From Candidatus Hydrogenedentota bacterium (GTDB lineage: Bacteria > Hydrogenedentota > Hydrogenedentia > Hydrogenedentales > SLHB01): a DNA stretch of 27,038 bases. Shown piece by piece: positions 11,341-26,058 of this stretch. Position numbers and translations under genes: made by a program. The stretch spans positions 1-27,038 of the forward strand of contig JAWXCN010000191.1 in NCBI GenBank assembly GCA_034408725.1, given 5' to 3'. Position 1 is the stretch's first letter. Each line of letters starts with the position of its first letter. The notes below the pieces were generated by a model, which was not told the origin of the DNA, ran no database searches, and was given only the letters and a program-made list of their open reading frames with translations.

Positions 11341-11781
11341 ATGTCGTTGAAGGACCAGATTCAGGACGAGATAAAGCGCGCCATGAAGGACAAGAATCAG
11401 GTGCGCCTGGAATGCCTTCGGATGGTGAAGGGCGCACTTTTGATGAAGGAAAAAGAATCGGCGGACCCGCTGACGGACGAAGTGTCCATCGCGACCGTGC
11501 GCGGGGAGATTAAGAAGCGGCAACAGTCGCTGGATATTTTCCGCGATCTGGGCAAGACCGCCGAGGCGGAAGCAACCGAGCAGGAAATCGCGATCATCAA
11601 CGAATTCCTGCCGCAACAGTTGTCCGAGGCCGATCTCGACGCGCGCGTGCGGGAATACCTCGCCGCGCATCCGGAGTTGAACCATGCGGGGAAGCTGACC
11701 GGCGCAATGAAGAAAGAACTCGGCGACCTCGCGGACGGCAAGATGTTGAACGAAGTGTGCAAACGGGTAGTCGGAGGATAA
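11341..11781 (+). CDS. GatB/YqeY domain protein
   Basis: AGGAGA before ATG 11341; MSLKDQIQDEIKRAMK..LRMVK..EIKKRQQS..EIAIINEFLPQQLSE..ADGK. Confidence 0.9.
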   Translation: MSLKDQIQDEIKRAMKDKNQVRLECLRMVKGALLMKEKESADPLTDEVSIATVRGEIKKRQQSLDIFRDLGKTAEAEATEQEIAIINEFLPQQLSEADLDARVREYLAAHPELNHAGKLTGAMKKELGDLADGKMLNEVCKRVVGG

Positions 11782-11786
11782 ATCAA

Positions 11787-12212
11787 GTGCGATGCTTGGC
11801 CGCGACCCTTGCGATGTTACTCGTATTTGCAGGCTGTGGCCCGTCCGGACCAACGCCGGTGGAAACGTCCGAGACGTCTACAGCGGTCAAACCGGTCCCG
11901 GCGGCCAAAGCCCCGCTTCCCGCCGATGTTCCTGTTCCGGCAGAACTCGCGAACCGATCCGATTCAACGGTTGCGGGAAGTGACTATCACGTGGTCCAGG
12001 GCCAACTGGCGATGCCCATGGGCGATGCCATCGCCACCGTCCGCAAGCAAGCCGCCAGCACGGGATGGGTGGAAAAGCCGCAACAAGGGGCGGCGCCCGT
12101 GGCTTCGGTCACGACACATACCTTCACGAAGGATTCGCGCCAGCTCACCGTTACTCTGGCGATGGTGGACCCTACTTCCACCAGTGTGAACCTGATGACG
12201 GGTCCGCAATAA
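11787..12212 (+). CDS. Hypothetical lipoprotein
   Basis: GGAGG at 11773-11777 before GTG 11787; hydrophobic leader ending in lipobox FAG/C; Pro/Thr-rich linker. Confidence 0.7.
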   Translation: MRCLAATLAMLLVFAGCGPSGPTPVETSETSTAVKPVPAAKAPLPADVPVPAELANRSDSTVAGSDYHVVQGQLAMPMGDAIATVRKQAASTGWVEKPQQGAAPVASVTTHTFTKDSRQLTVTLAMVDPTSTSVNLMTGPQ

Positions 12213-12249
12213 GACATTTCTCCCCGCCGTTCTATTTGTATGTGGTGCA

Positions 12250-12278
12250 TTGCCTTTTTCAAAAATTCAATATATAGT
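12250..12278 (+). promoter_or_regulatory. Putative sigma70 promoter P1 of the pilus operon
   Basis: TTGCCT (12250-12255), 17 nt, TATAGT (12273-12278). Confidence 0.5.
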
Positions 12279-12311
12279 AGCCAGATAGGATTACACTACC
12301 ATATATTGAAT
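12265..12311. promoter_or_regulatory. Tandem NrdR-box-like palindromes, 31 bp apart
   Basis: attCAATATATAGTag (12265-12280) and ctaCCATATATTGaat (12296-12311) compared with consensus acaCwAtATaTwGtgt; together they form a 17-bp inverted repeat with 1 mismatch. Confidence 0.6.
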
Positions 12312-12368
12312 TCTATTGATATTATTCCGCAAATTCCGCACAACCAACAAGTTATATCTTCAAATTAC

Positions 12369-12377
12369 TGTGAATAA
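12369..12377 (-). promoter_or_regulatory. Consensus DnaA box
   Basis: TGTGAATAA is the reverse complement of TTATTCACA (fits TTWTNCACA); single 9-mer in AT-rich DNA. Confidence 0.4.
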
Positions 12378-12389
12378 AAGATTTACGAC

Positions 12390-12418
12390 TTGTTCTCTAT
12401 TGACCTATCTGGTACAAT
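12390..12418 (+). promoter_or_regulatory. Putative sigma70 promoter P2 (extended -10)
   Basis: TTGTTC (12390-12395), 17 nt, TACAAT (12413-12418), preceded by TGn. Confidence 0.5.
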
Positions 12419-12464
12419 TTCGCTGCTAGCCGGAGCAACCGGTTAGAGAAGGATTCGGTTCAGA

Positions 12465-14981
12465 ATGTTGAGTTGGCGGCGCGACAAAAAAGATGAGGCC
12501 GGTGGTGCGACTGCGCCGCCAGCGGAATCCCACCCGCCAACTGTGACGGGAAAAGCCGCGCCGGCGCCTCCTCCCGCTTCGACCGCGACGGCGCCGCGTC
12601 TGGGAGAGCTGCTGGTCCAGGAAGGCGTCATCACGGCGCAGCAGCTTCACGAAGGGTTGACGAAGCAGGCAGAGACCGGCAGTTTCATCGGACACACTCT
12701 GGTTGAACTGGGTTTTCTGAACCAGTCGACGCTCGTTTCGTTTCTCGTGAAGCAATGCAAGATTCCGCACATCAGTCTGCTGGATTACAACATAGGGGAA
12801 GATCTTTTTAAGCTGGTCTCCCGCGAGCTGTGCTTGAAGCATCGCCTGCTGCCGATTGACAAGCTTGGCAGAATTCTCACGATTGCAATGGTTGATCCGT
12901 TGGACGCCGATGCGCTCGAGAAAGTGCGCGAATCCTGCCCCGAACTAAAGATCAAACCGATTCTATGCACGTGGGCGCATTACGAACAGGTGTCGCGCAG
13001 AATATTTGCCGACACGTCCGCGCCTTCCGCGGAAGTTTCCATGGGCACGTTTGGGTTGTCGTCGAAGAAAACATCCATCGCGCCAGCGGACAAGACACAG
13101 GCGGATGCAGCGGTTGCGCAATTGGTGAAAGAGGCGACTGCGTCAAAGCCCATGCAAGAAACGGCAGGGGCGCCGGCAAAAGCCGACACACCGCCGCCGG
13201 CCGTGCGCGAGAGCGCGGCGGCAGCGCGCATGGAGTTGCCGGACGCCATATTTGATCGCTTCGGCGATCACATGCGCCTGGCAATAACGGAATCACTCAG
13301 TCCGTTAATCGCGGACCAACAGAAACTGATCGCGTTGCAGCTTGAGACGACGAAAGGAAAACCTGCCGATCTGGCGCGGGACATCGCGGCAAACATGCGC
13401 GCGGCCCTGCAAGAGTCTCTGGCGACGGTATTGGAAACCCATTCGCGCCTGGCTCCGCAGTCCGCTCCGCATCAACAGATCGACACCGGACTTCTCGCGA
13501 AAGAGCTTGGGGAAAGCGTGCGCGCGGCGATGCTCGATTCCGTATTGCCGGCACTTCAGCTTGGCGACGGTGGCACACCAAAAGGTCAATCACCCGTAGC
13601 GGGCATAGATGCGAAAACGCTTGCAAGGGAATTGGGCGAGAGCGTTCGCACCGCGGTAGCAGAGTCGATAGCGCCGTTAGCGAAGCCGTTGAATGGCGGG
13701 GAATCGCGCGCAGCCAAGTCCGCGTTTGACATGCCGGACCTTGCGAAGGAATTGACGGCGGGCGTGCGGGACGCGGTAATGGAAGCCATTGTTCCACTGG
13801 TCCAGGCACAGAAAGCGACGGTGCAAGCGGGGGCGCGCGCGCCGGAAGAAATCGCAAAGCATTTTGCGCAGCACATCAATCGCAGCATGGCGCAACTGTC
13901 CAAAGAATTGCGCGAGAGCATCGAATCGCGCGCGCCACAGACGCCGGTGGATAGCTTCTCGGCAGCCATAGCGTCGACAATTGAATCCGCGAATGCGAAG
14001 CAGAACACGCGCATGGCGGAATTGACCAATAGCACCAAGGACGCGTTGCTGGCGGTGCGCGAAATGCTGGAGGCGATGCGCGCGCGCGAAGCAGAACCTC
14101 TCGCGGTACCCGCGTCAAATGTTTCGCCGTTCCCTGGGTTGCGCGCGGCTGAACCGGTGCAAGCCATTGCGGTCCCGCATTTCGATCCGATGGACGAGAT
14201 CGGTCTCGGAGCGGAAGCGGATGATCGCGTTCGGGAGGCGCTGCTTTCGGGGCGGTTGCAGCGATCTTTCTCATTCGATGCTTTTCTATCGGGCGCGGCC
14301 AACACGTTTACACTGTCGGTTGCGCGCGCGGTCACGGAATCGTACTCGCGGGAGTTCACCCCGTTTTACATCTACGGGGACGTTGGCGTTGGAAAGACGC
14401 ATCTGTTGCAGGCCATTGGGAACGATCTGCTTGCGCGCAACCCCGACCTGCGCGTGGCGTATATGACGGGGCTTCGCTTCGTTAGCGCGTGTGAACGCGC
14501 CGCGCGCGATCAGGAGTTGGAACGGTTCCGCGAAACTTTTGCGCACTGGGACGCGTTGCTGTTTGACGATGCGCAAAGCGTGAGCGAGCACAAGCAAGCG
14601 CAGGATGAATTGCGCACGGTGCTCGGAGTATTGACGCTCGAGGGCCGGCTGGTAGTCGTTAGCGCGGACCGCGCGCCCGACCATTTGCCGGACACTTCGC
14701 ACCAGTTGGTTTCGCGGTTGGCGTCGGGAATCGTTTCGCGGCTCCATGCGCCGGACATGCCGACACGGCTTGCGATACTGCAACGGCACACCCGATTGTT
14801 GAAAGCGAAAATAGCGGACGACGTGTTGTCGTTGATCGCGGCCCGCGTGCCCACCGACGTTCGCAAGATGACCGGGGCATTGCGCAAGGCGCTTGCGTTT
14901 GCGCAGGTTTCTGGAACGGACGTAACGCACGCGCTTGCGGAAGAAATTCTGAGTCATCTCGCCACAACCGAAGCGGCGTAA
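12465..14981 (+). CDS. MshEN/T2SSE_N - helical repeat - DnaA/Hda-type AAA+ fusion protein (no DnaA domain IV)
   Basis: RLGELLVQEGVITAQQLHEGLTKQ MshEN motif; IAMVDPLD T2SSE_N; C-terminal FSFDAFLSGAAN, PFYIYGDVGVGKTHLLQAIGN, DALLFDD, SADRAP, LVSRL, TRLAIL, DVRKMTGAL collinear with DnaA domain III; protein ends right after it. Confidence 0.88.
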   Translation: MLSWRRDKKDEAGGATAPPAESHPPTVTGKAAPAPPPASTATAPRLGELLVQEGVITAQQLHEGLTKQAETGSFIGHTLVELGFLNQSTLVSFLVKQCKIPHISLLDYNIGEDLFKLVSRELCLKHRLLPIDKLGRILTIAMVDPLDADALEKVRESCPELKIKPILCTWAHYEQVSRRIFADTSAPSAEVSMGTFGLSSKKTSIAPADKTQADAAVAQLVKEATASKPMQETAGAPAKADTPPPAVRESAAAARMELPDAIFDRFGDHMRLAITESLSPLIADQQKLIALQLETTKGKPADLARDIAANMRAALQESLATVLETHSRLAPQSAPHQQIDTGLLAKELGESVRAAMLDSVLPALQLGDGGTPKGQSPVAGIDAKTLARELGESVRTAVAESIAPLAKPLNGGESRAAKSAFDMPDLAKELTAGVRDAVMEAIVPLVQAQKATVQAGARAPEEIAKHFAQHINRSMAQLSKELRESIESRAPQTPVDSFSAAIASTIESANAKQNTRMAELTNSTKDALLAVREMLEAMRAREAEPLAVPASNVSPFPGLRAAEPVQAIAVPHFDPMDEIGLGAEADDRVREALLSGRLQRSFSFDAFLSGAANTFTLSVARAVTESYSREFTPFYIYGDVGVGKTHLLQAIGNDLLARNPDLRVAYMTGLRFVSACERAARDQELERFRETFAHWDALLFDDAQSVSEHKQAQDELRTVLGVLTLEGRLVVVSADRAPDHLPDTSHQLVSRLASGIVSRLHAPDMPTRLAILQRHTRLLKAKIADDVLSLIAARVPTDVRKMTGALRKALAFAQVSGTDVTHALAEEILSHLATTEAA

Positions 14982-14999
14982 CATGGGGGAAATTCGAGC

Positions 15000-16721
15000 G
15001 TGCCACCAAAGATAGCGAAGCGGCGCCTGGGCGACGTACTGATTGAGCAGGAGCTCGTCACGCAGGAGCAGTTGCAGGAAGCGATCGTGCTTCAGCGGCA
15101 ATCCGGACTCAGCCTGGCGTCGATTCTCGTGTCGAAGAAATACCTGAGCGAGGAAGACCTCGTCATCACATTGAGCGAACAGCTCGGCATTCCGCACATC
15201 CGCGTGATGAACTACAACATTCCGCAAGAAGTGCTGAATGAAGTGCCGGAATCGCTCGCGCGCCAGTATCAAATGTTGCCGGTGTCGGTGACGGGCGACG
15301 TGCTTACACTTGCGATGGGTGATCCGCTGAATATCATGGCGCTCGATGATTTGCGCATGTTGACGAGTTATGAGATCGAGCCGGTGGTCGCGGTGCAATC
15401 CGAGTTGGTTGACGCCATCAATCGACATTACGGGGGTAAACAAAGCGATGCCCTGTACGACGAACTGATGGACGCCTCCAAACAGGATGGCGTGCAGGTT
15501 GTCGAGAAAAAGGACGAGATCGAAGATCTCGCGCACGCCCAGGCGGAAGCGCAGGACGGCCCTGTCATCCGGCTGGTCAATCTCATTCTCGTGGGCGCGC
15601 TTGAGAATCGCGCGAGCGACATCCATGTCGAGCCCTATGAGAAGTCGCTGCGGATTCGCTATCGCATTGACGGAATGTTGGAAGAGCAGAAAAACCCGCC
15701 AAAGAACGTACAATCCGCATTGATTTCGAGGTTGAAGATTATGTCGGGACTCGACATTGCCGAGCACCGGCTTCCGCAGGACGGACGATTCCGCATCAAG
15801 TTCCGGGGCCACGAGGTGGACTTTCGCGTGTCCATTCTTCCGTGTTACCACGGCGAGAAGGTCGTGATGCGCGTATTGGACAAAAGCTCGCTGTCGCTTG
15901 ATCTCGACACGCTGGGTTTCGCGGACCAACCGATGGACGCTTTCCGGGAGGCGCTTGCGCTCCCGTTTGGAATGATTCTTCTGACAGGCCCGACGGGTAG
16001 CGGTAAAACGACGACGTTGTACAGCGCGCTGCATAAATTGAACGGGCCCGACACGAACATTATCACCGTCGAAGACCCGGTTGAATATGAATTGTTTGGC
16101 GTGAACCAGGTGCAGGTGAAATCTGAAATCGGGTTATCGTTCGCAGCGGGGTTGCGCAGTATTTTGCGCCAGGACCCGGACGTCATAATGGTCGGTGAAA
16201 TTCGAGACGAGGAGACCGCGGACATTGCGATTAAGGCGGCGTTGACAGGCCACCTCGTGCTGAGCACGCTGCACACGAACGACGCGGCCAGCGTTTACAC
16301 ACGTTTGATCGACATGAACATGGAACCCTTCCTGGTGCAGTCGTCGGTGGGGCTTGCCGCGGCGCAGCGGCTGCTTCGGCGGGTTTGCGTGGAATGCAAA
16401 GAACCGATTCGCGTGCCCGAAGAAGTGCTCGAGCGGATACAGTTTCGCAATAATCCCGGTGGCCCTCCGCCACGCTTCGTGCGGGGACGCGGCTGTTCGA
16501 AGTGCAAGGATACCGGTTACCGGGGCCGGCTTGCGGTGATCGAAGCGATGCCGAACTATCCGGATTTGCAGGAACTCATCATGACGCGCTCGCCTTCAGC
16601 GGACATCAAGCGGACGGCGATTCAGTGCGGCATGGCGACATTGCGCCAAAACGCATTGGAGAAGGCGGCCGAAGGCGTGACGACAATCGAGGAAGTGCTG
16701 CGCGTATCGGCGGCGGACTAA
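15000..16721 (+). CDS. pilB: Type IV pilus assembly ATPase (PilB/GspE family)
   Basis: ASDIHVEP, RLPQDGR, GPTGSGKTTT, TVEDPVE, LRQDPDVIMVGEIRD, LSTLHTND, CVEC..CSKC zinc motif. Confidence 0.92.
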   Translation: MPPKIAKRRLGDVLIEQELVTQEQLQEAIVLQRQSGLSLASILVSKKYLSEEDLVITLSEQLGIPHIRVMNYNIPQEVLNEVPESLARQYQMLPVSVTGDVLTLAMGDPLNIMALDDLRMLTSYEIEPVVAVQSELVDAINRHYGGKQSDALYDELMDASKQDGVQVVEKKDEIEDLAHAQAEAQDGPVIRLVNLILVGALENRASDIHVEPYEKSLRIRYRIDGMLEEQKNPPKNVQSALISRLKIMSGLDIAEHRLPQDGRFRIKFRGHEVDFRVSILPCYHGEKVVMRVLDKSSLSLDLDTLGFADQPMDAFREALALPFGMILLTGPTGSGKTTTLYSALHKLNGPDTNIITVEDPVEYELFGVNQVQVKSEIGLSFAAGLRSILRQDPDVIMVGEIRDEETADIAIKAALTGHLVLSTLHTNDAASVYTRLIDMNMEPFLVQSSVGLAAAQRLLRRVCVECKEPIRVPEEVLERIQFRNNPGGPPPRFVRGRGCSKCKDTGYRGRLAVIEAMPNYPDLQELIMTRSPSADIKRTAIQCGMATLRQNALEKAAEGVTTIEEVLRVSAAD

Positions 16722-16805
16722 GCATCGAAGAACAACAGGCGAACGTCCATCGCGAAGATGGAGAACGCAACGGCGGCACGCCACGCGCATACTGGGGAGA
16801 GCGAG

Positions 16806-17879
16806 ATGGTTGAAATCAGCATTCGTGAATTGTTGCAGAAATTGACCGAGCAAGGGGGAAGCGATCTGCACATCGCGGTGGGAAGCCCGCCGGTCATCCG
16901 GTTGCACGGGCTTCTGGAGCCCATGAACGAATACCCACGCTTGACGCCCGAAGATTCCCAGGAAATTATCTATAGCGTGATGAACGAGGAACAGATCGCC
17001 TCGTTTGAAACCGAACGCGAACTGGACATGTCGTTTGGAATCGAGGGCCTCAGCCGGTTTCGCTTGAACGTCTATCGCGATCGGGGTTCTGTTGTGGCCG
17101 CGTTTCGCGCGATCCCTTTCGAGATTCGTTCGTGCGAAGAGTTGGGGTTGCCGAAAATCGTGGCGGACATGGCGTATCGCCCGCAGGGTTTGGTGCTGAT
17201 TTGTGGACCGACCGGTAGCGGAAAAACGACGACATTGGCGGCGATTCTGGACAAGATAAACCGGGAACGCCCGCTCCATATTATTACCATTGAAGACCCG
17301 ATTGAGTATTTACACCAGCACAACGTCGCCACGATCAACCAGCGTGAAGTGAACGCGGACACGAAGTCGTTCGCAGCGGCATTGAAACGGGTGTTACGGC
17401 AGGACCCCGACGTCATCCTCATCGGTGAAATGCGCGACCAGGAAACGATCTCGGCGGCTATCACCGTGGCGGAAACGGGTCACCTGGCGTTCGCGACGCT
17501 GCACACCAACGACGCGCTGCAAACGATTAACCGTATTGTCGACGTGTTTCCACCCAACCAGCAGGACCAGGTTCGAACGCAGTTGTCGTTCGTGCTCGAG
17601 GGCATTTGCGTGCAGCAACTGATTCCACGGTCAGACGGAATGGGCCGCGCGATGGCGCTTGAAGTGATGATTCCGAATACGGCAATCCGGTCTCTAATCC
17701 GCGAGCAAAAACTCCAGCAGATTCCCTCGATGATCGAGATCGGGACCGGCGAGGGCATGATGACCATGAACCAATCGCTATTCCGGTTGGTGAAACGCAA
17801 CGTAATAACGATGGACATGGCGTTCAAACGCAGTTCCGATCCCGAAGGGCTGCGCCGGTTGCTGGAAAAGGGATTGTGA
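16806..17879 (+). CDS. pilT: Type IV pilus retraction ATPase
   Basis: GSDLHI, GPTGSGKTTT, TIEDPIE, LRQDPDVILIGEMRD, ATLHTN, AIRSLIRE; GGGGAG before ATG 16806 (alternative start 16758). Confidence 0.93.
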   Translation: MVEISIRELLQKLTEQGGSDLHIAVGSPPVIRLHGLLEPMNEYPRLTPEDSQEIIYSVMNEEQIASFETERELDMSFGIEGLSRFRLNVYRDRGSVVAAFRAIPFEIRSCEELGLPKIVADMAYRPQGLVLICGPTGSGKTTTLAAILDKINRERPLHIITIEDPIEYLHQHNVATINQREVNADTKSFAAALKRVLRQDPDVILIGEMRDQETISAAITVAETGHLAFATLHTNDALQTINRIVDVFPPNQQDQVRTQLSFVLEGICVQQLIPRSDGMGRAMALEVMIPNTAIRSLIREQKLQQIPSMIEIGTGEGMMTMNQSLFRLVKRNVITMDMAFKRSSDPEGLRRLLEKGL

Positions 17880-19492
17880 GTGCACCGCCTTCCTCCCACG
17901 CCGCGCGCGGGGGCGTGGTCGCCGGCCCAGCCTGGCAACCCGCCACGGGCATTATCCGGCTCGCGCTGTTGTGCGTGTTCGCGATCGGAACGTTTCTCAT
18001 CCATGACTATGAGCAGACCGAACAGGCATATCTGTTCGCATTCTACTGCTTCGGGTTTGCGAGCACTCTTGGCCATTTGATTGCGACGCGGCGGGGCAAT
18101 CCCGCGCGCCCCTTGTTGACGTGGGCGCAGGTACTTGTCGATTTCAGCGTAATCGCGGCAACGGTAAGTTTCACTGGCGGAGCGCAAAGCCATTTTGCAT
18201 TCCTGTTTGTCATCGCGATTCTCGAGGCGGGAATTCTGCTGGGAGTTTTACAAGGATTTCTCGTCGCGACGCTTGCGGTGTGCGTCATGGCGGTGCTGGT
18301 GCTCACGTCACATCCCCCTACGTGGGCGGCACGGGGTTATGACGAAACCACGGTGACGGCGTGGTACGGCTTTCTCGTGCAGGCGCTTGCCTATTATTTG
18401 ACCGCGGCGATTTCGGGATACTGGAACCAGCAACTGCACCGCCAACAACAGTTTCAACGCGAAATTCTCGATAACATGAACAACGGGTTCATCATTGTTG
18501 ACCTCGGGGGAATTGTGACGGTGGCGAACAAGGCGGCCGAGCGGATTCTAAACATCAGCGAAGCCGAGGCGCTGGGCAGGCCCGTGCAGGAAATTTTGCG
18601 CGTGGCTTCTGGAGAGGAATGCCCCGTCGTGACGGCGATTCGGGCCGAACGCGATTTTACGCGGTACGAGTATATTGGACTTGTATTTCCGCACAACGCG
18701 AAACTGCTTGGCTTGAGCACGAGCCGCATTTTTGACTGGCGTAAGCGTCTGACGGGAATCATTGCGTCGTTCAGCGATCTCACCGAACTTGAACAAATGC
18801 GCGACGAGGTGACGCGGCACGACCGGCTGTCGGTGACCGGCGAGCTTGCGGCGGGGCTCGCGCATGAAATTCGCAATCCGGTCGCGGCGATACGCGGGGC
18901 GGTGGACGAACTGATGGACAGCCTAGACAAGCCGCTGTTGGTCACTAAACTGGCGACTATCGCGATGCGCGAATCGGACCAGTTGAACGCGATCGTTTCC
19001 GACTTCCTGGATTTCGCGCGCAAACCGCGCGTGCGACAGGACGTGTTTGATGTGTGCGGCCTAGTCAAGGAGGTCGTTGATGGGACCGAACGGAAATACG
19101 CGGACGCCGCGAGTCTGCGCGTGACGGCATTGACGCCGGACGCGATGTTCCCCGTGTCCGGTGATCGCACGCAGATTCGGCAGGTATTTGTGAACCTTGC
19201 GAAGAACGCCGTTGAAGCGATGCACGAGCAGGGGACGCTGAACGTTTCGGTGCAACCGGGCGCGACATTTGTGGAAGTGCGGTTCGATGACGAAGGCCCC
19301 GGCATCGAACCCGACAAGGTTGCGCGCATTTTTGAGCCTTTTTATACTACCAAAGAACATGGCGTCGGCATGGGATTGGCCATTTGTCTGCGCATTATCA
19401 CGGCACACGATGGCACCATCCGCGCCGAATCACGCGAAGGGGGAGGCGCGTCAATGAGCGTGCGCCTGCCGCTGGTCCGCACCGAGGAGTAA
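17876..19492 (+). CDS. pilS: PilS-like membrane sensor histidine kinase with PAS domain
   Basis: About 6 TM helices, PAS, H-box LAHEIRNP, N-box NLAKNA, DEGPGI, FEPFYTTK, GVGMGL; GTGA overlap with pilT; symbol rests partly on synteny. Confidence 0.82.
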   Translation: MSAPPSSHAARGGVVAGPAWQPATGIIRLALLCVFAIGTFLIHDYEQTEQAYLFAFYCFGFASTLGHLIATRRGNPARPLLTWAQVLVDFSVIAATVSFTGGAQSHFAFLFVIAILEAGILLGVLQGFLVATLAVCVMAVLVLTSHPPTWAARGYDETTVTAWYGFLVQALAYYLTAAISGYWNQQLHRQQQFQREILDNMNNGFIIVDLGGIVTVANKAAERILNISEAEALGRPVQEILRVASGEECPVVTAIRAERDFTRYEYIGLVFPHNAKLLGLSTSRIFDWRKRLTGIIASFSDLTELEQMRDEVTRHDRLSVTGELAAGLAHEIRNPVAAIRGAVDELMDSLDKPLLVTKLATIAMRESDQLNAIVSDFLDFARKPRVRQDVFDVCGLVKEVVDGTERKYADAASLRVTALTPDAMFPVSGDRTQIRQVFVNLAKNAVEAMHEQGTLNVSVQPGATFVEVRFDDEGPGIEPDKVARIFEPFYTTKEHGVGMGLAICLRIITAHDGTIRAESREGGGASMSVRLPLVRTEE

Positions 19493-19498
19493 CCCGCC

Positions 19499-20887
19499 GT
19501 GGCACTGCACCAACGCGTTCTGGTTGTTGACGACGAATCGAGCATGCGCGAATTGCTCGAGATCGTATTGTCGAAGGACGGCTATGAAATCGTGACTGCA
19601 TCGAACGTGACCGATGCAATCGCGGTGCTATCCAAAGAAGCTTTCGATGTTGTGCTGACCGACTTGCGCATGGGGACCGAACGCAACGCGGGGATGACGC
19701 TTCTGGAATGGATTAACGAAAACAGCGCGACCACTCCCGCGCTCATGATGACCGCGTATGGCAGCGTGGAAACCGCGATTGAAGCGATGAAACGCGGTGC
19801 TGTCGATTACATCATGAAACCGTTCAAGAACGAAGAAGTGCGAATGCAGGTGCAGCGCGCGATCGAGCAGCGCAACCTGAAGCGGGAAAACGTGGCGCTC
19901 AGAAAAGACCAGGCGAGCCGGGGCAAACTGGACAATATGGTCGGTAAAAGCAAACCGATCGAAGAACTGCGCGACATGATTCGCAGGGTTTCCAACCTGC
20001 CGAGCACCGTGGCCATTCACGGTGAAAGCGGCACGGGCAAGGAACTGGTCGCGCGCGGAATCCACACGTTGAGCGCGCGCTCGTCAAAACCGTTTGTTGC
20101 GGTGAACTGCGGGGGCTTTCCAGAAAACCTATTGGAAAGCGAGTTGTTCGGGCACAAGAAGGGATCGTTCACCGGCGCGTACGATGACAAGGAGGGGCTG
20201 TTTGTCGTGGCCGATGGTGGCACGATGTTTCTTGACGAAGTTGGCGAAATGCCGCTGTCGCTCCAGGTGAAGCTGCTGCGCGTGCTGGACAACAACATCG
20301 TTTTTCCGGTCGGCGGCACACAAGGCATCAAGGTAGACGTGCGGATCATTTCCGCGACGAACCGAAAGCTGGACCAGATGGTGAAAGACAGCACATTCCG
20401 CGAAGACCTGTTCTACCGCCTTAACGTAATTCCCATCCAGGTGCCCTCCCTGCGAGAACGCCCGGACGACATTCCACTGCTGATCCGGACGTTTGTGGCG
20501 GCGCACGCCGCGAAAATGGGGCGCGGCGCCATTCAAATTGCGCCCGAAACGGAAGCTGCCTTACAAGCTTTCACTTGGCCGGGAAACGTGCGCGAGCTGA
20601 TGAACGTCCTCGAACGCGCTGTCGCTTTGTGCCACAACGACCGGCTTGAAATCACCGACTTGCCAACATACATTCGCGAGCATGTTGGCGCGCCAGCGGC
20701 GCTGATGCCCGCGGTGCCCTCCAGTGGGTTCGATCTCGAAAAATATGTGGCCGAGATCGAGACGACGCTTATCCAGCAGGCATTGCAGAACACGAAGTAC
20801 TCGCAAAAACGCGCTGCGGGCTTGTTGGGGTTGACCGCGCGATCATTACGATACCGGCTGAAAAAGTACGGCATGGAAAGCGATTAG
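19499..20887 (+). CDS. pilR: PilR/NtrC-family sigma54-dependent response regulator
   Basis: Receiver VVDDE..TDLRM..KPF; GESGTGKELVA, ESELFGHKKGSFTGA, FLDEVGE, WPGNVREL; Fis-type HTH ending RSLRYRLKK. Confidence 0.85.
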   Translation: MALHQRVLVVDDESSMRELLEIVLSKDGYEIVTASNVTDAIAVLSKEAFDVVLTDLRMGTERNAGMTLLEWINENSATTPALMMTAYGSVETAIEAMKRGAVDYIMKPFKNEEVRMQVQRAIEQRNLKRENVALRKDQASRGKLDNMVGKSKPIEELRDMIRRVSNLPSTVAIHGESGTGKELVARGIHTLSARSSKPFVAVNCGGFPENLLESELFGHKKGSFTGAYDDKEGLFVVADGGTMFLDEVGEMPLSLQVKLLRVLDNNIVFPVGGTQGIKVDVRIISATNRKLDQMVKDSTFREDLFYRLNVIPIQVPSLRERPDDIPLLIRTFVAAHAAKMGRGAIQIAPETEAALQAFTWPGNVRELMNVLERAVALCHNDRLEITDLPTYIREHVGAPAALMPAVPSSGFDLEKYVAEIETTLIQQALQNTKYSQKRAAGLLGLTARSLRYRLKKYGMESD

Positions 20888-21112: not shown

Positions 21113-21191
21113 CGGGGCGTAGCGCAGTCCGGTTTAGCGCACTTGCCTGGGGGGCAAGGGGTCGCTGGTTCGAATCCAGTCGCCCCGACCA
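21113..21191 (+). tRNA. tRNA-Pro(GGG)
   Basis: Acceptor CGGGGCG/CGCCCCG plus ACCA; D-arm GCGC/GCGC; anticodon stem CTTGC/GCAAG with GGG at 21149-21151; T-loop TTCGAAT. Confidence 0.97.
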
Positions 21192-22756
21192 TTTTTCATT
21201 TCTGCCACGGGTGGACAATCGTTGTAAACGCTTGCACATGCAGGCATTTCGCGCTTGGTCTCACGCTTTCCCGCGTCGCGTTGTACAGGGGCACTTCTGC
21301 TAGTAATTGACTCTAAACGTATAGAATTGCCGGGAGTTGGTGTAATATTTGGTGTAATAGAATCAGCGGCGACTGCCTCGGCAATCTTCTCTTCGTCGTC
21401 CGCGGGCAAGTCCGGCAATCTCGTAACTGCGGCGAATCCGTCGACCACACCGAGGTGCGTATATACGTTCGCCGTGATTTTGGGATCTGAATGGCGCATT
21501 AGCGCCTGAGTCTGCTGCAGCGGAACTCCAGCCCTCGCCAACATCGTCCCAAACGTGTGGCGCAATGCGTGCACGTCTACCGTCCTGCCATTGGAATCGC
21601 GCTTAGCGATACCAGCAAACTTAATGTCGAGGTCGAAAACCCGCGTCAACTTTTCCGGTAAGGTGAATAGCCGTACTTGGGGGTCCAACGTGACTGGAAT
21701 CGGTGCTTTATTATTGGAGGCGGTTGTCCTCGCGCTTTTAAGTTTGACATCGAGATATTCACGCAAGGCACAAATCAAGTCCACCCGTAGAGGAATGTGC
21801 GCACCTCGTCTGGCTTTCTCATTGGCAGCGCGCAACTCGATGAAAGGCGACTCCACATCTAAATTCAACTGCCCCACCGTAATACTCCGAAGTTCTCCGT
21901 ATCGCATACCGGTATAGGCTAAGACACGGTAGACCAGTGCGCGCACTCTACCGGTTGTCGCCAGGTGTTCGGCCGTGGCAGGACTTAGTTTTGCTGACTT
22001 TGTTCCTCTGTTCCCGGTGCGTCGGCGGTCGAGTGGGCGCCGCTCGGCACTTTCAATAAGCGATTTGAGCTCAACGAGAGTCAGCGCCCGGCGTTGACGG
22101 ACGGGATCTATGCTTTCATTGAAGGTTACCACGCCGGCAAATGGGTTCGAATGTAGCCGGTTCATTGAGACCAGCCAATTGCAGAATGCCTTTGCGGCTT
22201 TAATTCGCGCGTTTACAGCTCGAGCTTTCTTGCCGTGATTGCGCAGACGTTCGATCCATTTATCCAAATCAGCGCGATCAAGGTCAGTCAGAACCATCCA
22301 ATCGCAATCATCCTTCATTGAAATGAGGTATTTGCCGCAGGCCTCAACGTGCCCGGCGGTCACGCCACGGACTCGTTGTGCCTTCTTGTATTCCTCAAAA
22401 AGCTCGGTCAATTGACGGGCACCCTGATTTGCCAGATTGCGCTCTCTAGGTGTCACGGCACCGATCCGTTGACGTTCCGCGTCACGCTCCAAGTCCGCCA
22501 ACACCGATCGCGCCGCGTCCATAGTCTTGCAGCCAGTCGGGCGTTCGACATAAATATTGTCGGGCCCACGAAATTTGGCGTAGTAGTAGGCGCACTCATG
22601 AATCAGCTTCCATTTTTCGGCTACCAACTTGGCGGGCTTACGGTGAGTCTTTCCCGCGGCATCGGACCAAACGGCAAATGCTTGTCCCTTATGTTCAGCG
22701 ATCTTTGCACCTGGCGGAAGCGCACGTGTGTTTCTTCGTCGAAATACACTACCCAT
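21134..22756 (-). CDS. int: Tyrosine recombinase (integrase); its C-terminal tail overlaps the att arm and the tRNA
   Basis: Catalytic residues in TGMRYGEL, EKARR, HALRH, MRHS, NVY; TAA stop at 21136-21134 lies inside the tRNA D-loop. Confidence 0.92.
   Translation of the reverse strand: MGSVFRRRNTRALPPGAKIAEHKGQAFAVWSDAAGKTHRKPAKLVAEKWKLIHECAYYYAKFRGPDNIYVERPTGCKTMDAARSVLADLERDAERQRIGAVTPRERNLANQGARQLTELFEEYKKAQRVRGVTAGHVEACGKYLISMKDDCDWMVLTDLDRADLDKWIERLRNHGKKARAVNARIKAAKAFCNWLVSMNRLHSNPFAGVVTFNESIDPVRQRRALTLVELKSLIESAERRPLDRRRTGNRGTKSAKLSPATAEHLATTGRVRALVYRVLAYTGMRYGELRSITVGQLNLDVESPFIELRAANEKARRGAHIPLRVDLICALREYLDVKLKSARTTASNNKAPIPVTLDPQVRLFTLPEKLTRVFDLDIKFAGIAKRDSNGRTVDVHALRHTFGTMLARAGVPLQQTQALMRHSDPKITANVYTHLGVVDGFAAVTRLPDLPADDEEKIAEAVAADSITPNITPTPGNSIRLESITSRSAPVQRDAGKRETKREMPACASVYNDCPPVAEMKNGRGDWIRTSDPLPPRQVR
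21337..21359. repeat. Direct repeat, putative integrase arm-type sites
   Basis: TTGGTGTAATA at 21337-21347 and 21349-21359, about 150 bp from the tRNA 3' end. Confidence 0.6.
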
Positions 22757-22851: not shown

Positions 22852-22924
22852 CGAAGATGTTCATGGGTCTCGAAGATGCTCATCACACTCATCTGGGCAC
22901 CTTCGACTCTTCTAATCATCTTCG
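22852..22924. repeat. Four iteron-like 12-mers in two facing pairs; putative element replication origin
   Basis: CGAAGATGTTCA (22852) and CGAAGATGCTCA (22871) on +; CGAAGGTGCCCA (22905-22894) and CGAAGATGATTA (22924-22913) on -; 19-bp period in both pairs; AT-rich tract adjacent. Confidence 0.6.
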
Positions 22925-24732
22925 ACGTTTGTTTGCGTTTTTACACGTGGCTCTGGGAGTCTCCAGACCCAGTGCTGATTCGATTTGCCCGGTTGTCCAC
23001 GTTTCTCTGCGATGACCCCCATCGTGGATTTCGCTCTACGCAAAGTCGCGATTGCGATGCCATTTTCCTGTGCTTGCGCCTTTATTTCATTTGCAGGACC
23101 TGGGAGGGCCTCAGCAAGAAACTCGCACGCGGCCGCGAGCTGTGATTCCACTTCGTAGGTATCAGGAGTGAGAAGTTGCGCAGCCGTGTGTGCCGTCTCA
23201 CCTTGCCAGTCTATTACCGGCGTTCCCACGTTCGTCACTTCGACGACGAACGCCAACGATTTTGGGAATGTTCCAACGTTTGTCTTCGACACCGCCAGCA
23301 CGCGCCGTTCGGGATTGTCGGGGTCTTTCGCAATAACCAATCCCACACGTGCCGCTGCTATGATGCCGATACTCCCACCGCCGCGGTACAGCGGATTCGG
23401 CCCGCACGTCTTGTTCAGATGTCGAACGATCAATATTGCGACGCCGGTTTCCTCGGCAAGGCATTTCAGTGCATGCATCGCTCGGCGTACCTCTTGGTCG
23501 CGGTGGGCATTGATACTGCCCGAGAGGAAGGCCATGAGCGGGTCGATAACCAAGAGGTTGGCGTCGCACTCGCCAATTGCCTCTTTTATCTTATCAATAT
23601 CAGTTGGAATTGAAATCGGGGATTCTGCCTTACCGCCAGGCGCAGAGGTGGAAATAGTGCATACGCGCGAGAGGTCTGCGCCGGCTGCTTCAAGTCGAGG
23701 ACGGATTGTGTCCGCCTCGCCGTCTTCCGCGTTAAGCATTACTACTGAACATGGTGGGCATCCTTCGCGCCCGCCTGGAAAACACCGCCCAGTCGAGAGT
23801 CGCGCACTGATGTCAATGGTGACGAGACTCTTACCTACCGCTGGGTCGGCATCGAGTACGGTAATTTTTCGCCGAGCGAGAAAGCCGCGCCACAGCCAAT
23901 CCACTTTTTCGGAGGCGATATCGCAATACCTTATTAGTCGTGATGATTTAGACGGCCACGGATGCCACAAGCGGGAAGTTTCCGCGATTTCCAAGAGCGC
24001 CTCACGTGTGCCACCACCACGAAGCCAATCGGTAACATCACCTTTTGGAGGCACGTTGACAAGCGACACAACACGAACGCTTTGCGCGATGCCACGAAGC
24101 GATTCTGCGACGAACTCAGCGTGCTTCTTCCCGGGCTCATCGTTGTCCGGCAGAATGACGACATCGGCTCCCCGGAGCGATTCACTCAGCGCGTCAGTCC
24201 ATTTGCCTGCTCCGCCCGAATTGCAGGTCGCAATAAGGCCCAGTGATTCCAAACTGAGAACGTCTTTTTCCCCTTCTACGAGGAAGATTCGATGGCCATT
24301 CTGGATTGCCTTATTCACCGCCGACCAGCGAAAAATGACCCTTTCCACTCCGTTAAGATTCCACTCCCAACCTCCGTTCCCGTCGGGTCGGCGCTGTCGA
24401 AATGCTTTGGGTCTCTGTCGGATCACCTGATAGAGCATGTTTCCAGACAAATCCGTGTAGTCATAAGCCTCCTCGATATTGCTCTTGCCACGGGGAAACG
24501 TGTATTCCTCATGCAATGGCGTAGATACGCTCTGACCATTAAATGCGGCAACAATGTCTTTGAACTTACATCCAGCGTAGCAGTGGATCAGGGCTTCGCC
24601 ATTTCCAGCACGGTCTATGCTAAGTGATGGTTCATGATCGTCATGAGCTGGGCAGAGCGCGAGGAACCCTTTGCCAGCAGGACGAGCTTCACGCAGGCGC
24701 GGGAGAAGGTCATCAAACTTAAGATATGACAT
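22912..24732 (-). CDS. Primase-helicase (Zn finger, TOPRIM, RepA/AAA_25-type ATPase)
   Basis: CPAHDDHEPSL..HCYAGC; LVEGEKD..PDNDEPG; Walker A ADPAVGKS, AEDG, Walker B LLVIDP, IVRHLNK. Confidence 0.88.
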   Translation of the reverse strand: MSYLKFDDLLPRLREARPAGKGFLALCPAHDDHEPSLSIDRAGNGEALIHCYAGCKFKDIVAAFNGQSVSTPLHEEYTFPRGKSNIEEAYDYTDLSGNMLYQVIRQRPKAFRQRRPDGNGGWEWNLNGVERVIFRWSAVNKAIQNGHRIFLVEGEKDVLSLESLGLIATCNSGGAGKWTDALSESLRGADVVILPDNDEPGKKHAEFVAESLRGIAQSVRVVSLVNVPPKGDVTDWLRGGGTREALLEIAETSRLWHPWPSKSSRLIRYCDIASEKVDWLWRGFLARRKITVLDADPAVGKSLVTIDISARLSTGRCFPGGREGCPPCSVVMLNAEDGEADTIRPRLEAAGADLSRVCTISTSAPGGKAESPISIPTDIDKIKEAIGECDANLLVIDPLMAFLSGSINAHRDQEVRRAMHALKCLAEETGVAILIVRHLNKTCGPNPLYRGGGSIGIIAAARVGLVIAKDPDNPERRVLAVSKTNVGTFPKSLAFVVEVTNVGTPVIDWQGETAHTAAQLLTPDTYEVESQLAAACEFLAEALPGPANEIKAQAQENGIAIATLRRAKSTMGVIAEKRGQPGKSNQHWVWRLPEPRVKTQTNVEDD

Positions 24733-25197: not shown

Positions 25198-26058
25198 CTA
25201 CGGCTTCGATTTCTTCTTATGCACCCAGTTGAGGGCATTTTGAACATTCTTGAACGACGGCGACACTCCGTTCGGCAGCTGGTAGGTTTGACGGAAGCCG
25301 TTATAAGTAGGCCGGCTCTTGTCAGCACTATACACCTTCCATTTTTTGGCAATATCACGATATTGTTGCTCTTTTACATCCGTAAGTGAAGGATGCCCGC
25401 GCTTTTTTCTTTCACAAATGGCAAAATGCCTTTCGTCCACCGCCTTCCGGAAACACTTCAAGAGCTCCTTCACCCATGCGTCACCTATAAACCAATACTT
25501 CGATTCGACGAGCCAAGCAACGAAATCGGTTGGGGTTACACAATATGGTTTCTTCTTGGGCTTTGCAGGAAGCTTGCCGATTGACACAGCAAACTCGGCC
25601 TCCGCTTTTAGGTATGGATGGCATTCGACCAGCGAGTTTTCACCGCTGCGGTCATATACTCCCCTAACAGGCAGAAATGTGTTCATGGATTTATAACTTA
25701 AGTATAGGACTGGCAAGAAACATCGGACCAATGTATCCAATGAGTGTTCTATATGGCGATTATCATAGAATACTCTGAACTTATCAGGGATTCGTGTATC
25801 AGGTTCGGCAAGAACATATGTGTACAATTCTCCTTTTATTTTTATCGGTTTTGGCGTTACAAATATCCGTCCTACTATAGGGACAAGCCATATAGTTCTG
25901 GTTTTATGGTCTATTCGGGTCTCAATTCGCGCGTCGAGTACAGGCAGGATGTTCTGCCACTGAGGTCCTTCATTGGTAGCAGGAGGGGATGTCGGGTTGG
26001 ATTCAGCTTTGGATTTGAGGTTTTTGATTCTACGACTTTCTGGGTCAGATTTTGCCAT
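25198..26058 (-). CDS. Hypothetical basic protein, possible C-terminal DNA-binding domain
   Basis: 286-aa open frame in AT-richer DNA, co-oriented with the element; Lys-rich; no family recognised. Confidence 0.65.
   Translation of the reverse strand: MAKSDPESRRIKNLKSKAESNPTSPPATNEGPQWQNILPVLDARIETRIDHKTRTIWLVPIVGRIFVTPKPIKIKGELYTYVLAEPDTRIPDKFRVFYDNRHIEHSLDTLVRCFLPVLYLSYKSMNTFLPVRGVYDRSGENSLVECHPYLKAEAEFAVSIGKLPAKPKKKPYCVTPTDFVAWLVESKYWFIGDAWVKELLKCFRKAVDERHFAICERKKRGHPSLTDVKEQQYRDIAKKWKVYSADKSRPTYNGFRQTYQLPNGVSPSFKNVQNALNWVHKKKSKP

Follow-up and report, generated by a model that had tools for sequence, protein, structure and literature searches.

An MshEN–DnaA-type AAA+ fusion protein encoded upstream of pilB in the Hydrogenedentota: a candidate accessory factor of the type IV pilus motor

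The fusion gene and its homologues

The DNA analysed in this study (the window) is a stretch of 27,038 nucleotides (nt) from a Candidatus Hydrogenedentota bacterium (GenBank assembly GCA_034408725.1, contig JAWXCN010000191.1, positions 1 to 27,038 of the forward strand). The gene under study, referred to as the fusion gene (12465-14981, + strand), is an open reading frame with an ATG start that codes for 838 residues. It is followed on the same strand by pilB (15000-16721, GTG start), for the extension ATPase of type IV pili, an MshEN plus T2SSE protein in which PF00437 was matched at 461.7 bits. The gap between the end of the fusion gene (14981) and the start of pilB is 18 nt, as given in the original prediction made from this DNA. 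The genes pilT (16758-17879), pilS (17876-19492) and pilR (19499-20887), all on the + strand and assigned with Pfam, come next. The fusion protein is a conserved three-part protein, formed by an MshEN domain of the type that acts as a receptor of cyclic diguanosine monophosphate (c-di-GMP), a variable linker with repeats and a complete DnaA-type AAA+ module.

The fusion protein was scanned against Pfam, and 13 families were matched at expect (E) values of up to 1. MshEN (PF05157) was found at residues 99-169 (55.6 bits, cut-off 23.1) and Bac_DnaA (PF00308) at residues 598-757 (141.3 bits, cut-off 23). These matches included none to Bac_DnaA_C (PF08299; domain IV of DnaA), none to DnaA_N (PF11638; domain I), the N-terminus being occupied by MshEN, and none to the T2SSE ATPase domain (PF00437). 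The protein ends four residues past the lid helix. The anatomy proposed in the original prediction (MshEN, a linker and domain III of DnaA, with neither domain I nor domain IV) was confirmed by Pfam, NCBIfam and the motifs described below, and the pattern of profile matches anticipated there, with MshEN and Bac_DnaA present and Bac_DnaA_C absent, was the one obtained. An AlphaFold2 model was computed with 27 family members as input and had a mean predicted local distance difference test score (pLDDT) of 64.8. In this model the MshEN domain is folded at residues 45-182 and the AAA+ domain is placed with confidence at residues 590-834 (pLDDT about 90); residues 1-44, 184-260 and 543-585 are disordered.

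Homologues were searched for among 5.8 billion protein clusters, which gave 238 matches at E ≤ 0.001, of which 120 were listed. MshEN and Bac_DnaA occurred together in all 120 listed homologues. These carried source names such as 'ATP-binding protein', 'DnaA/Hda family protein' and 'chromosomal replication initiator protein DnaA', and came mostly from Candidatus Hydrogenedentes. Contigs from other metagenome runs tiled the fusion gene with zero differences, no single one of them spanning all of it (X3 record 10, 12290-14105; X4 record 20, 13669-14200; X2 record 6, 14163-14611; X2 record 7, 14586-16510). An assembly chimera was ruled out by the two-domain homologues, by this tiling and by the adjacency to pilB (66/66 loci, see below); the fusion, for which a check of conservation had been proposed, is real and conserved and is not an isolated case. 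Shorter proteins without MshEN were also matched. The ten best of these (42-85% identity) lie mostly on contigs of 1-5 kb and resemble fragments, and two such proteins were found on longer contigs (P0130, 434 residues on a 17-kb contig; P0154, 175 residues on a 25-kb contig).

Adjacency to pilB and distribution in the phylum

The Hydrogenedentota are known here from metagenome and enrichment assemblies only, so that bench work depends on heterologous systems. One genome per species was scanned, which gave 84 relatives; 80 loci were kept. Five loci labelled Rhodothermaeota, FCB group, Nitrospiraceae (twice) and 'metagenome' had contig numbers and coordinates identical to those of genomes in the Hydrogenedentota set and were taken to be from these very genomes. 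The 3' end of the fusion gene was present in 74 of the 80 loci, at least 2 kb lay beyond it in 66, and at least 6.8 kb of downstream DNA was available in 53. In every one of these 66, which span 15 families of the phylum, pilB starts 16-145 nt (median 72.5) downstream of the fusion gene. The PilB proteins encoded beside the fusion gene are 60-91% identical to that of the window. The order pilB-pilT-pilS-pilR was found in 43 of the 53 longer loci; nine of the ten exceptions had pilB only, with pilT, pilS and pilR not found at the thresholds used, and the tenth was without pilR only. The genes upstream of the fusion gene were common only to the locus of the closest relative.

The intergenic region upstream of the fusion gene (12213-12464, +) is AT-rich, with a purine-rich stretch before the ATG, and contains two sigma-70-like sites (12250-12278 and 12278-12307, +) that are consensus matches only. 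A sigma-54 promoter is expected for targets of PilR. No sigma-54-like site was found in 12213-12464 with up to two mismatches allowed, and a PilR-type promoter of the fusion gene was rejected; across the whole window six such sites were counted, fewer than the 14.6 expected by chance. The terminator-like sites listed for the + strand lie inside pilB (16142-16156) and inside pilS (18709-18726), and none was among them between the fusion gene, pilB, pilT, pilS and pilR. Because the gap to pilB is only 18 nt, no terminator-like site separates the genes and promoter-like sites occur only upstream, the fusion gene is very probably co-transcribed with pilB-pilT-pilS-pilR. A crude pattern for the prepilin motif detected no pilin gene, either in the window or in 13 related loci (+ strand). 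Elsewhere in the window's genome, PilM and several T2SSF platform genes were matched.

Distribution was determined with the N-domain of the fusion protein, since a search with profile A1 (133/135 genomes) over-counts, canonical DnaA also passing at E ≤ 1e-60. N-domain matches at E ≤ 1e-25 were obtained for 129 of the 135 Hydrogenedentota genomes, and for 85 of the 86 of high quality. At E ≤ 3.4e-33, a level that the strongest paralogue encoded in the genome of the window does not reach (1.4e-29), 124 of 135 still gave a match. In nearly the whole phylum, the fusion gene has been retained together with the gene of the pilus motor. Matches to PF00308 in 41 high-quality genomes fell into three tiers, with canonical DnaA at 215-250 bits (40/41 genomes), the fusion protein at 129-207 bits (37/41) and a third tier at 33-73 bits (31/41); the Hydrogenedentota carry three DnaA-type ATPases.

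Six genomes gave no N-domain match at E ≤ 1e-25 (G007, G016, G017, G119, G038 and G123). No PilB above 45% identity was found in G007, G016 and G017, and G119 gave a partial PilB match only (53%). The fusion gene and pilB are usually kept or lost together, though pilB can persist alone, as in G038 (described below). Joint loss may have been brought about by a single deletion of the two neighbours.

The MshEN domain and the DnaA-type module

MshEN is among the main c-di-GMP receptor domains. The NCBIfam model of its c-di-GMP-binding motif (NF053729) matched residues 45-97 of the fusion protein (MshEN_N; 12597-12755, +) at 55.9 bits, against a cut-off of 38. This motif has 53 residues, in two 24-residue halves with a 5-residue spacer, and the published form of each half is RLGxx(L/V/I)(L/V/I)xxG(L/V/I)(L/V/I)xxxxLxxxLxxQ (PMC5013675). 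The first half, residues 45-68 (RLGELLVQEGVITAQQLHEGLTKQ), agrees with it at all positions. The second half, residues 74-97 (FIGHTLVELGFLNQSTLVSFLVKQ), has a mismatch only at the first position, F for R; at the second position I stands for L, a like residue. The original prediction of a canonical motif was exact as to coordinates and held for the first half, whereas the second half begins with F-I-G and not with R-L-G.

The fusion N-domain aligned without gaps with Vibrio cholerae MshE (5HTL). Seventeen MshE positions discussed in PMC5013675 were tabulated, and at 16 of them the commonest residue of the fusion family was the same or alike; the sole exception was R38, the first position of the second half, which is F in 27/27 aligned family members. 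In the two hydrophobic triangles the family has L, I or V at the leucine positions, and the equivalent of D108 is kept in 26 of 27 members. The four glycines taken to define the canonical motif (PMC5013675) are also largely retained in the fusion protein (G11, 27/27; G18, 23/27; G40, 27/27; G47, 21/27); the corresponding counts for the adjoining PilB are 15/29, 9/29, 0/29 and 22/29. In the PilB proteins encoded after the fusion gene (window 15000-15200 and 28 related loci), G40 is replaced by A, P, S or Q in 29/29, R38 by S, N, T or G in 29/29 and G11 by Pro in 14/29. The MshEN_C subdomain of the fusion protein (VKQCKIPHISLLDY ... LPIDKLGRILT.AMVDPLD ... KPILC.W.H; 12756-13010, +), in which PF05157 was matched, is the best-conserved part of the family and holds the majority of the invariant columns in alignment A1. 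Judged by its sequence, the N-domain probably binds c-di-GMP, and the aromatic ring of the phenylalanine in the second half could stack on guanine in place of the arginine. Signalling by c-di-GMP is present in the window's genome, as indicated by seven GGDEF matches.

Among solved structures the N-domain matched PilB, PilF and MshE, with E values of 4e-17 for V. cholerae MshE and 1.6e-20 for Myxococcus xanthus PilB (3JC8). The two-half motif, MshEN_C and the D108 equivalent are features shared with these homologous domains. The fusion protein differs from MshE and PilB in that its output is a DnaA-type AAA+ module and not T2SSE, in the Phe that replaces Arg in the second half of the motif, and in a linker of about 400 residues between sensor and ATPase. 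MshEN is a portable N-terminal input that is found fused to REC, HD-GYP, CheA, CheX, cyclase and kinase domains (PMC5013675). It likewise serves as the N-terminal c-di-GMP input in NfrB-type glycosyltransferases, and NfrB models matched residues 43-149 of the fusion protein. A DnaA-type output is not named in the main text of PMC5013675; its Supplementary Table 4 holds further architectures and may include it. In the full-text literature no paper was found on an MshEN and DnaA architecture, nor on c-di-GMP, DnaA, AAA+ and type IV pili combined, and nothing on Hydrogenedentes with type IV pili was judged relevant to the fusion. The guess that the architecture is uncharacterised thus stands, with the supplementary tables of PMC5013675 as a place where it may be listed; the protein can with equal justification be called an MshEN receptor whose output domain is new or a new DnaA-type paralogue.

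The closest N-domain paralogue of the fusion protein in the window's genome is an MshEN-HDOD protein of 471 residues (G000:C7; L085:562-1977, - strand). The fusion N-domain is 45% identical to this protein and 33% identical to PilB. Many genomes of the phylum have frames of 410-640 residues with an N-domain 50-58% identical.

Domain III of DnaA (AAA+ with lid) was located at 14253-14966 (+) with phmmer and Foldseek. Residues 597-832 aligned without gaps with Bacillus subtilis DnaA in a phmmer search of solved structures (E 6e-41), and the modelled AAA+ part was superposed by Foldseek on B. subtilis domain III (8BV3) with a template modelling (TM) score of 0.92 and a root mean square deviation (rmsd) of 1.9 Å. 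Taken over 8BV3, 8BTG and Thermotoga maritima 2Z4R, the likeness extends without gaps over ~235 residues at 32-33% identity and TM scores of 0.91-0.92. Every motif named in the original prediction was located, all on the + strand: Walker A GDVGVGKT (residues 638-645, 14376-14399), Walker B LLFDD (residues 698-702, 14556-14570), sensor I SADR (residues 733-736), the arginine finger SRL (residues 750-752), in which R751 (14715-14717) aligns with R264 of B. subtilis, and sensor II VRK (residues 799-801; R800, 14862-14864). Residues G638, G641, G643, K644, D701, D702, R751 and R800 were unchanged in 27/27 aligned members; the sensor I aspartate was D in 20 and N in 5 of the 27. R689 and E715, which correspond to R202 and E228 of B. 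subtilis DnaA, were also invariant in the aligned family members. The invariance of the Walker, finger and sensor II residues points to selection for ATP turnover and head-to-tail assembly. The fusion protein is distinguished from DnaA by the absence of domains I and IV, by a score of 230.9 bits with the DnaA equivalog model TIGR00362, under its cut-off of 343.9, by the loss of most contacts to single-stranded DNA (ssDNA) and by its separate lineage.

Those contacts bear on a further explanation, in which the protein handles nucleic acid at the pilus, for example by receiving or protecting ssDNA from pilus-dependent transformation in a DnaA-type channel. Domain III of DnaA binds ssDNA as an ATP-dependent spiral (PMC10721633), 3R8F was among the fold matches, and the two-helix insertion specific to initiators is present in the model (helices at residues 669-681 and 685-693). 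The B. subtilis residues that contact the ssDNA of the DnaA-trio, taken from PMC10721633, are however mostly not conserved in the 27 members. The N187 equivalent is R (14), S (7) or G (4), the I190 equivalent is A (11) or E (5, with Glu in the window's protein), and the equivalents of E183 and E223 vary; in B. subtilis DnaA, I190A abolishes ssDNA binding (PMC10721633). Pfam also detected no competence genes in the window. We regard this explanation as highly improbable.

A separate dnaA gene was found in the window's genome (G000:C270), in keeping with the expectation of a complete initiator elsewhere; it codes for 462 residues, with a C-terminal part recognised by eye as domain IV. This normal DnaA is a potential target in the explanation preferred in the original prediction, an Hda-like replication factor. 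According to it, the AAA+ module would co-assemble with, cap or inactivate DnaA-ATP under the control of c-di-GMP and so couple surface behaviour to initiation, by analogy with Hda or with a dominant-negative DnaA devoid of its DNA-binding domain. It would provide a direct second-messenger input to initiation. A full domain III with invariant Walker motifs, arginine finger and sensor II, a modelled structure nearly identical to that of DnaA, and the invariance of R689 and E715 are all compatible with such a role, and Hda is likewise a DnaA-like AAA+ protein with an arginine finger and without a DNA-binding domain. The fusion protein, however, has 838 residues and a sensor domain, compared with 233 residues in Escherichia coli Hda, and it scored far under the cut-offs of the Hda models (TIGR03420, 88.5 vs 194.8; NF005982, 38.1 vs 268; NF051883, 25.7 vs 300). 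Its AAA+ part matched Hda structures with an E value of 8e-4 (phmmer), TM scores of 0.67-0.74 and rmsd values of 4.7-4.9 Å (Foldseek), the fold being nearer to that of DnaA.

The N-terminus of Hda carries a beta-clamp-binding motif that resembles QL[SDPAE]L[FPLI]. This motif was found in none of the 120 listed members, either in its strict form anywhere in the protein or in a loose form within the first 40 residues; the first 20 residues of E. coli Hda, used as positive control, matched both forms. Membership in Hda was ruled out by the scores below the cut-offs and the lack of the motif. The AAA+ module is 33-36% identical to the DnaA of its own phylum, from which it is about as distant as from E. 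coli DnaA (31%). In the two relatives assembled as a single contig the fusion gene lies far from dnaA (G034, 5.11 Mb: fusion gene at 0.40 Mb and dnaA at 4.87 Mb; G069, 7.93 Mb: 6.92 Mb and 2.25 Mb), and its constant neighbour is pilB and no replication gene. With the module also lying outside the phylum's DnaA clade, as described next, the Hda-like role is unsupported, and action on replication is considered unlikely.

In maximum-likelihood trees the DnaA proteins of the Hydrogenedentota formed a clade of their own among the DnaA of other phyla (support 99/92), with the fusion proteins outside it; one of the DnaA trees included 12 of the 30 DnaA rows of the phylum. The third paralogue (11 sequences) was also a clade of its own (100/100). 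The branch that unites all 25 canonical DnaA had a support of 63/39 only, and monophyly of the fusion proteins was merely not rejected (approximately unbiased test, p-AU 0.31). Deep order was unstable; P0100, E. coli Hda and the third paralogue sit on long branches that disturb the deep nodes. The phylogeny called for in the original prediction thus set the fusion proteins apart from the phylum's DnaA clade and did not settle the deep order. A recent duplication of the phylum's own dnaA was unsupported, since the fusion proteins lie outside the supported DnaA clade. Because the N-domain is nearer to the MshEN-HDOD protein than to PilB and the AAA+ module lies outside the DnaA clade, the fusion gene is not a simple join of a copy of the 5' part of pilB to a copy of the present-day dnaA. 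The third DnaA-type paralogue is encoded in the window's genome by a frame that runs off its contig (G000:C22; L003:281-2239, +); its N-terminal domain resembles Bac_DnaA (51.7 bits; Walker A sequence GDEGCGKT), and a coiled coil of at least 480 residues comes after it.

Possible action on the pilus motor

A second possibility raised in the original prediction was an initiator-type ATPase repurposed for the pilus. This alternative is favoured here by the adjacency to pilB and by a predicted contact with PilB that passed weakly. In the form considered, with about an even chance of being right, the fusion protein would be a phylum-specific accessory factor of the PilB motor that senses c-di-GMP and self-assembles in an ATP-dependent manner. 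A c-di-GMP-responsive oligomer on the pilus motor is suggested by the constant pairing with pilB, the PilB-like sensor domain and the conservation of the assembly residues. The AAA+ module would bind and hydrolyse ATP, and several modules would assemble head-to-tail through the arginine finger, as in DnaA. The oligomer, with its several MshEN domains presented on flexible linkers, would engage PilB, or the site at the pilus base where the homologous N-domain of PilB docks. Pilus extension, or placement of the motor, might thereby be tuned to the level of c-di-GMP. In a weaker version of the idea, the motif of PilB itself would have drifted, and the fusion protein would sense c-di-GMP in its stead.

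The complex of full-length PilB with residues 1-185 of the fusion protein was predicted with a score of 0.59 in three runs, and the best of three controls reached 0.01. At least 62% of the contacts were common to the runs, and the pLDDT of the partner was at least 69. In the calibration of this score 58 of 80 solved complexes reached the mark, as did 2 of 110 mismatched pairs; scores of 0.60 or less at the mark were obtained for only 7 of the 80 solved complexes and for both passing mismatches. The prediction lends weak support to a contact between the fusion N-domain and PilB.

The nearest working analogy is FimX of Pseudomonas and Xanthomonas, a separate c-di-GMP-binding protein that acts (with PilZ) on the N-domain of PilB and controls pilus assembly and motor placement (PMC11656802). 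FimX is not homologous to the fusion protein, lacks an AAA+ module and uses a degenerate EAL domain to sense c-di-GMP, and the contact of the fusion protein with PilB is only a weak prediction. A 2024 review of PilB cofactors (PMC11656802) mentions neither AAA+ nor DnaA. If the protein does act on PilB, it would represent a new kind of PilB cofactor beside FimX, PilZ and a few others, and an example of an initiator-type AAA+ module put to use in a process other than DNA replication.

To our knowledge, the ATPase core of DnaA has been described only in the initiation of replication and in the control of that step. We know of nothing in the biology of pili that requires a DnaA-type ATPase, and the role given to the AAA+ module at the pilus is pure inference; this and the following points weigh against a function as motor accessory factor. 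The first residue of the second motif half is F in the fusion protein, which is outside the set admitted there by the relaxed form of the published motif (R, K, P or N; PMC5013675). The N-domains of PilB passed NF053729 in 8 of 8 cases tested (45.5-61.8 bits, cut-off 38). A loss of the c-di-GMP motif by PilB accordingly had no profile-level support and was kept as an observation on residues only. The score of the predicted complex may reflect a mere likeness to solved PilB and PilF assemblies, the partner being homologous to the N-domain of PilB. The adjacency to pilB may in part result from the common descent of two MshEN domains and not from joint function. Finally, G038 (84% complete), a genome with no N-domain match at E ≤ 1e-25, has pilB fragments 70-71% identical to the pilB of the window with no fusion gene upstream; a divergent open reading frame of 158 residues stands there. 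The fusion factor is dispensable in at least one lineage, since G038 has pilB without it.

The lineage that keeps pilB alone is also what would be expected if the protein were a general c-di-GMP effector without action on pili, whose AAA+ oligomer served a different target, perhaps as a signalling scaffold, and whose place beside pilB were a frozen accident of the origin of the gene. The window's genome has 11 open frames with an MshEN-type N-domain and varied outputs, among them the MshEN-HDOD protein that is nearer than PilB, and the fusion of a third DnaA-like AAA+ to a coiled coil indicates that the module has been re-used in more than one context. A gap of at most 145 nt to pilB throughout 15 families would, however, be hard to maintain unless joint expression were useful, and the predicted PilB contact is a further, weak argument for action on the pilus. 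A general effector is regarded as rather unlikely.

Pilus and replication could also be bridged by the protein. At high c-di-GMP the AAA+ module would form mixed filaments with DnaA, or cap it, with the MshEN end held at the pilus motor, so that attachment to a surface would act as a direct gate on replication of the chromosome. We know of no control of initiation that resembles such a link from c-di-GMP to initiation through a DnaA paralogue, and the arrangement is considered very unlikely.

The remaining parts of the fusion protein are its ends and its linker. Residues 1-41 have a pLDDT of about 30 in the AlphaFold2 model. A conserved N-terminal peptide (MLSWRRDKKDEA; 12465-12500, +) is followed by a disordered Pro/Ala-rich stretch up to residue 44, and an ML[SGN]W start was found in 61 of the 120 listed members (40+13+8). 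The variable linker (13011-14231, +; 19% Ala) consists of disordered segments and helices of low confidence (residues 260-542, pLDDT 40-70). It contains four tandem repeats of ~41 residues that start at residues 303, 344, 386 and 426 (nt ~13359-13859); four copies of the repeat motif were counted, whereas 500 shuffles gave an expectation of 0.06 and a maximum of 2. Members of the family range from 548 to 1202 residues, with most of the variation in the linker. No Pfam family matched the linker, and no usable relative of it was found in the ESM Atlas (best feature score 0.75, TM score at most 0.37). The C-terminus ends in a conserved Ala-Ala (14973-14978, +; 109/120 listed members), which we take to be reminiscent of the tags recognised by ClpXP and which may turn the protein into a protease substrate.

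Two open reading frames of the window matched no Pfam family. One (11757-12212, +, 151 residues) precedes the fusion gene and is common only to the locus of the closest relative, at 43% identity; the other is at 25198-26058 (-, 286 residues). A tRNA-Pro (GGG) gene at 21113-21191, directly after pilR, overlaps the 3' end of a tyrosine-integrase open reading frame (21134-22756, -), which is adjoined by a Toprim/AAA_25 open reading frame of primase-helicase type (22912-24732, -). The segment 21113-24732 has the appearance of an integrative element that entered at the tRNA gene.

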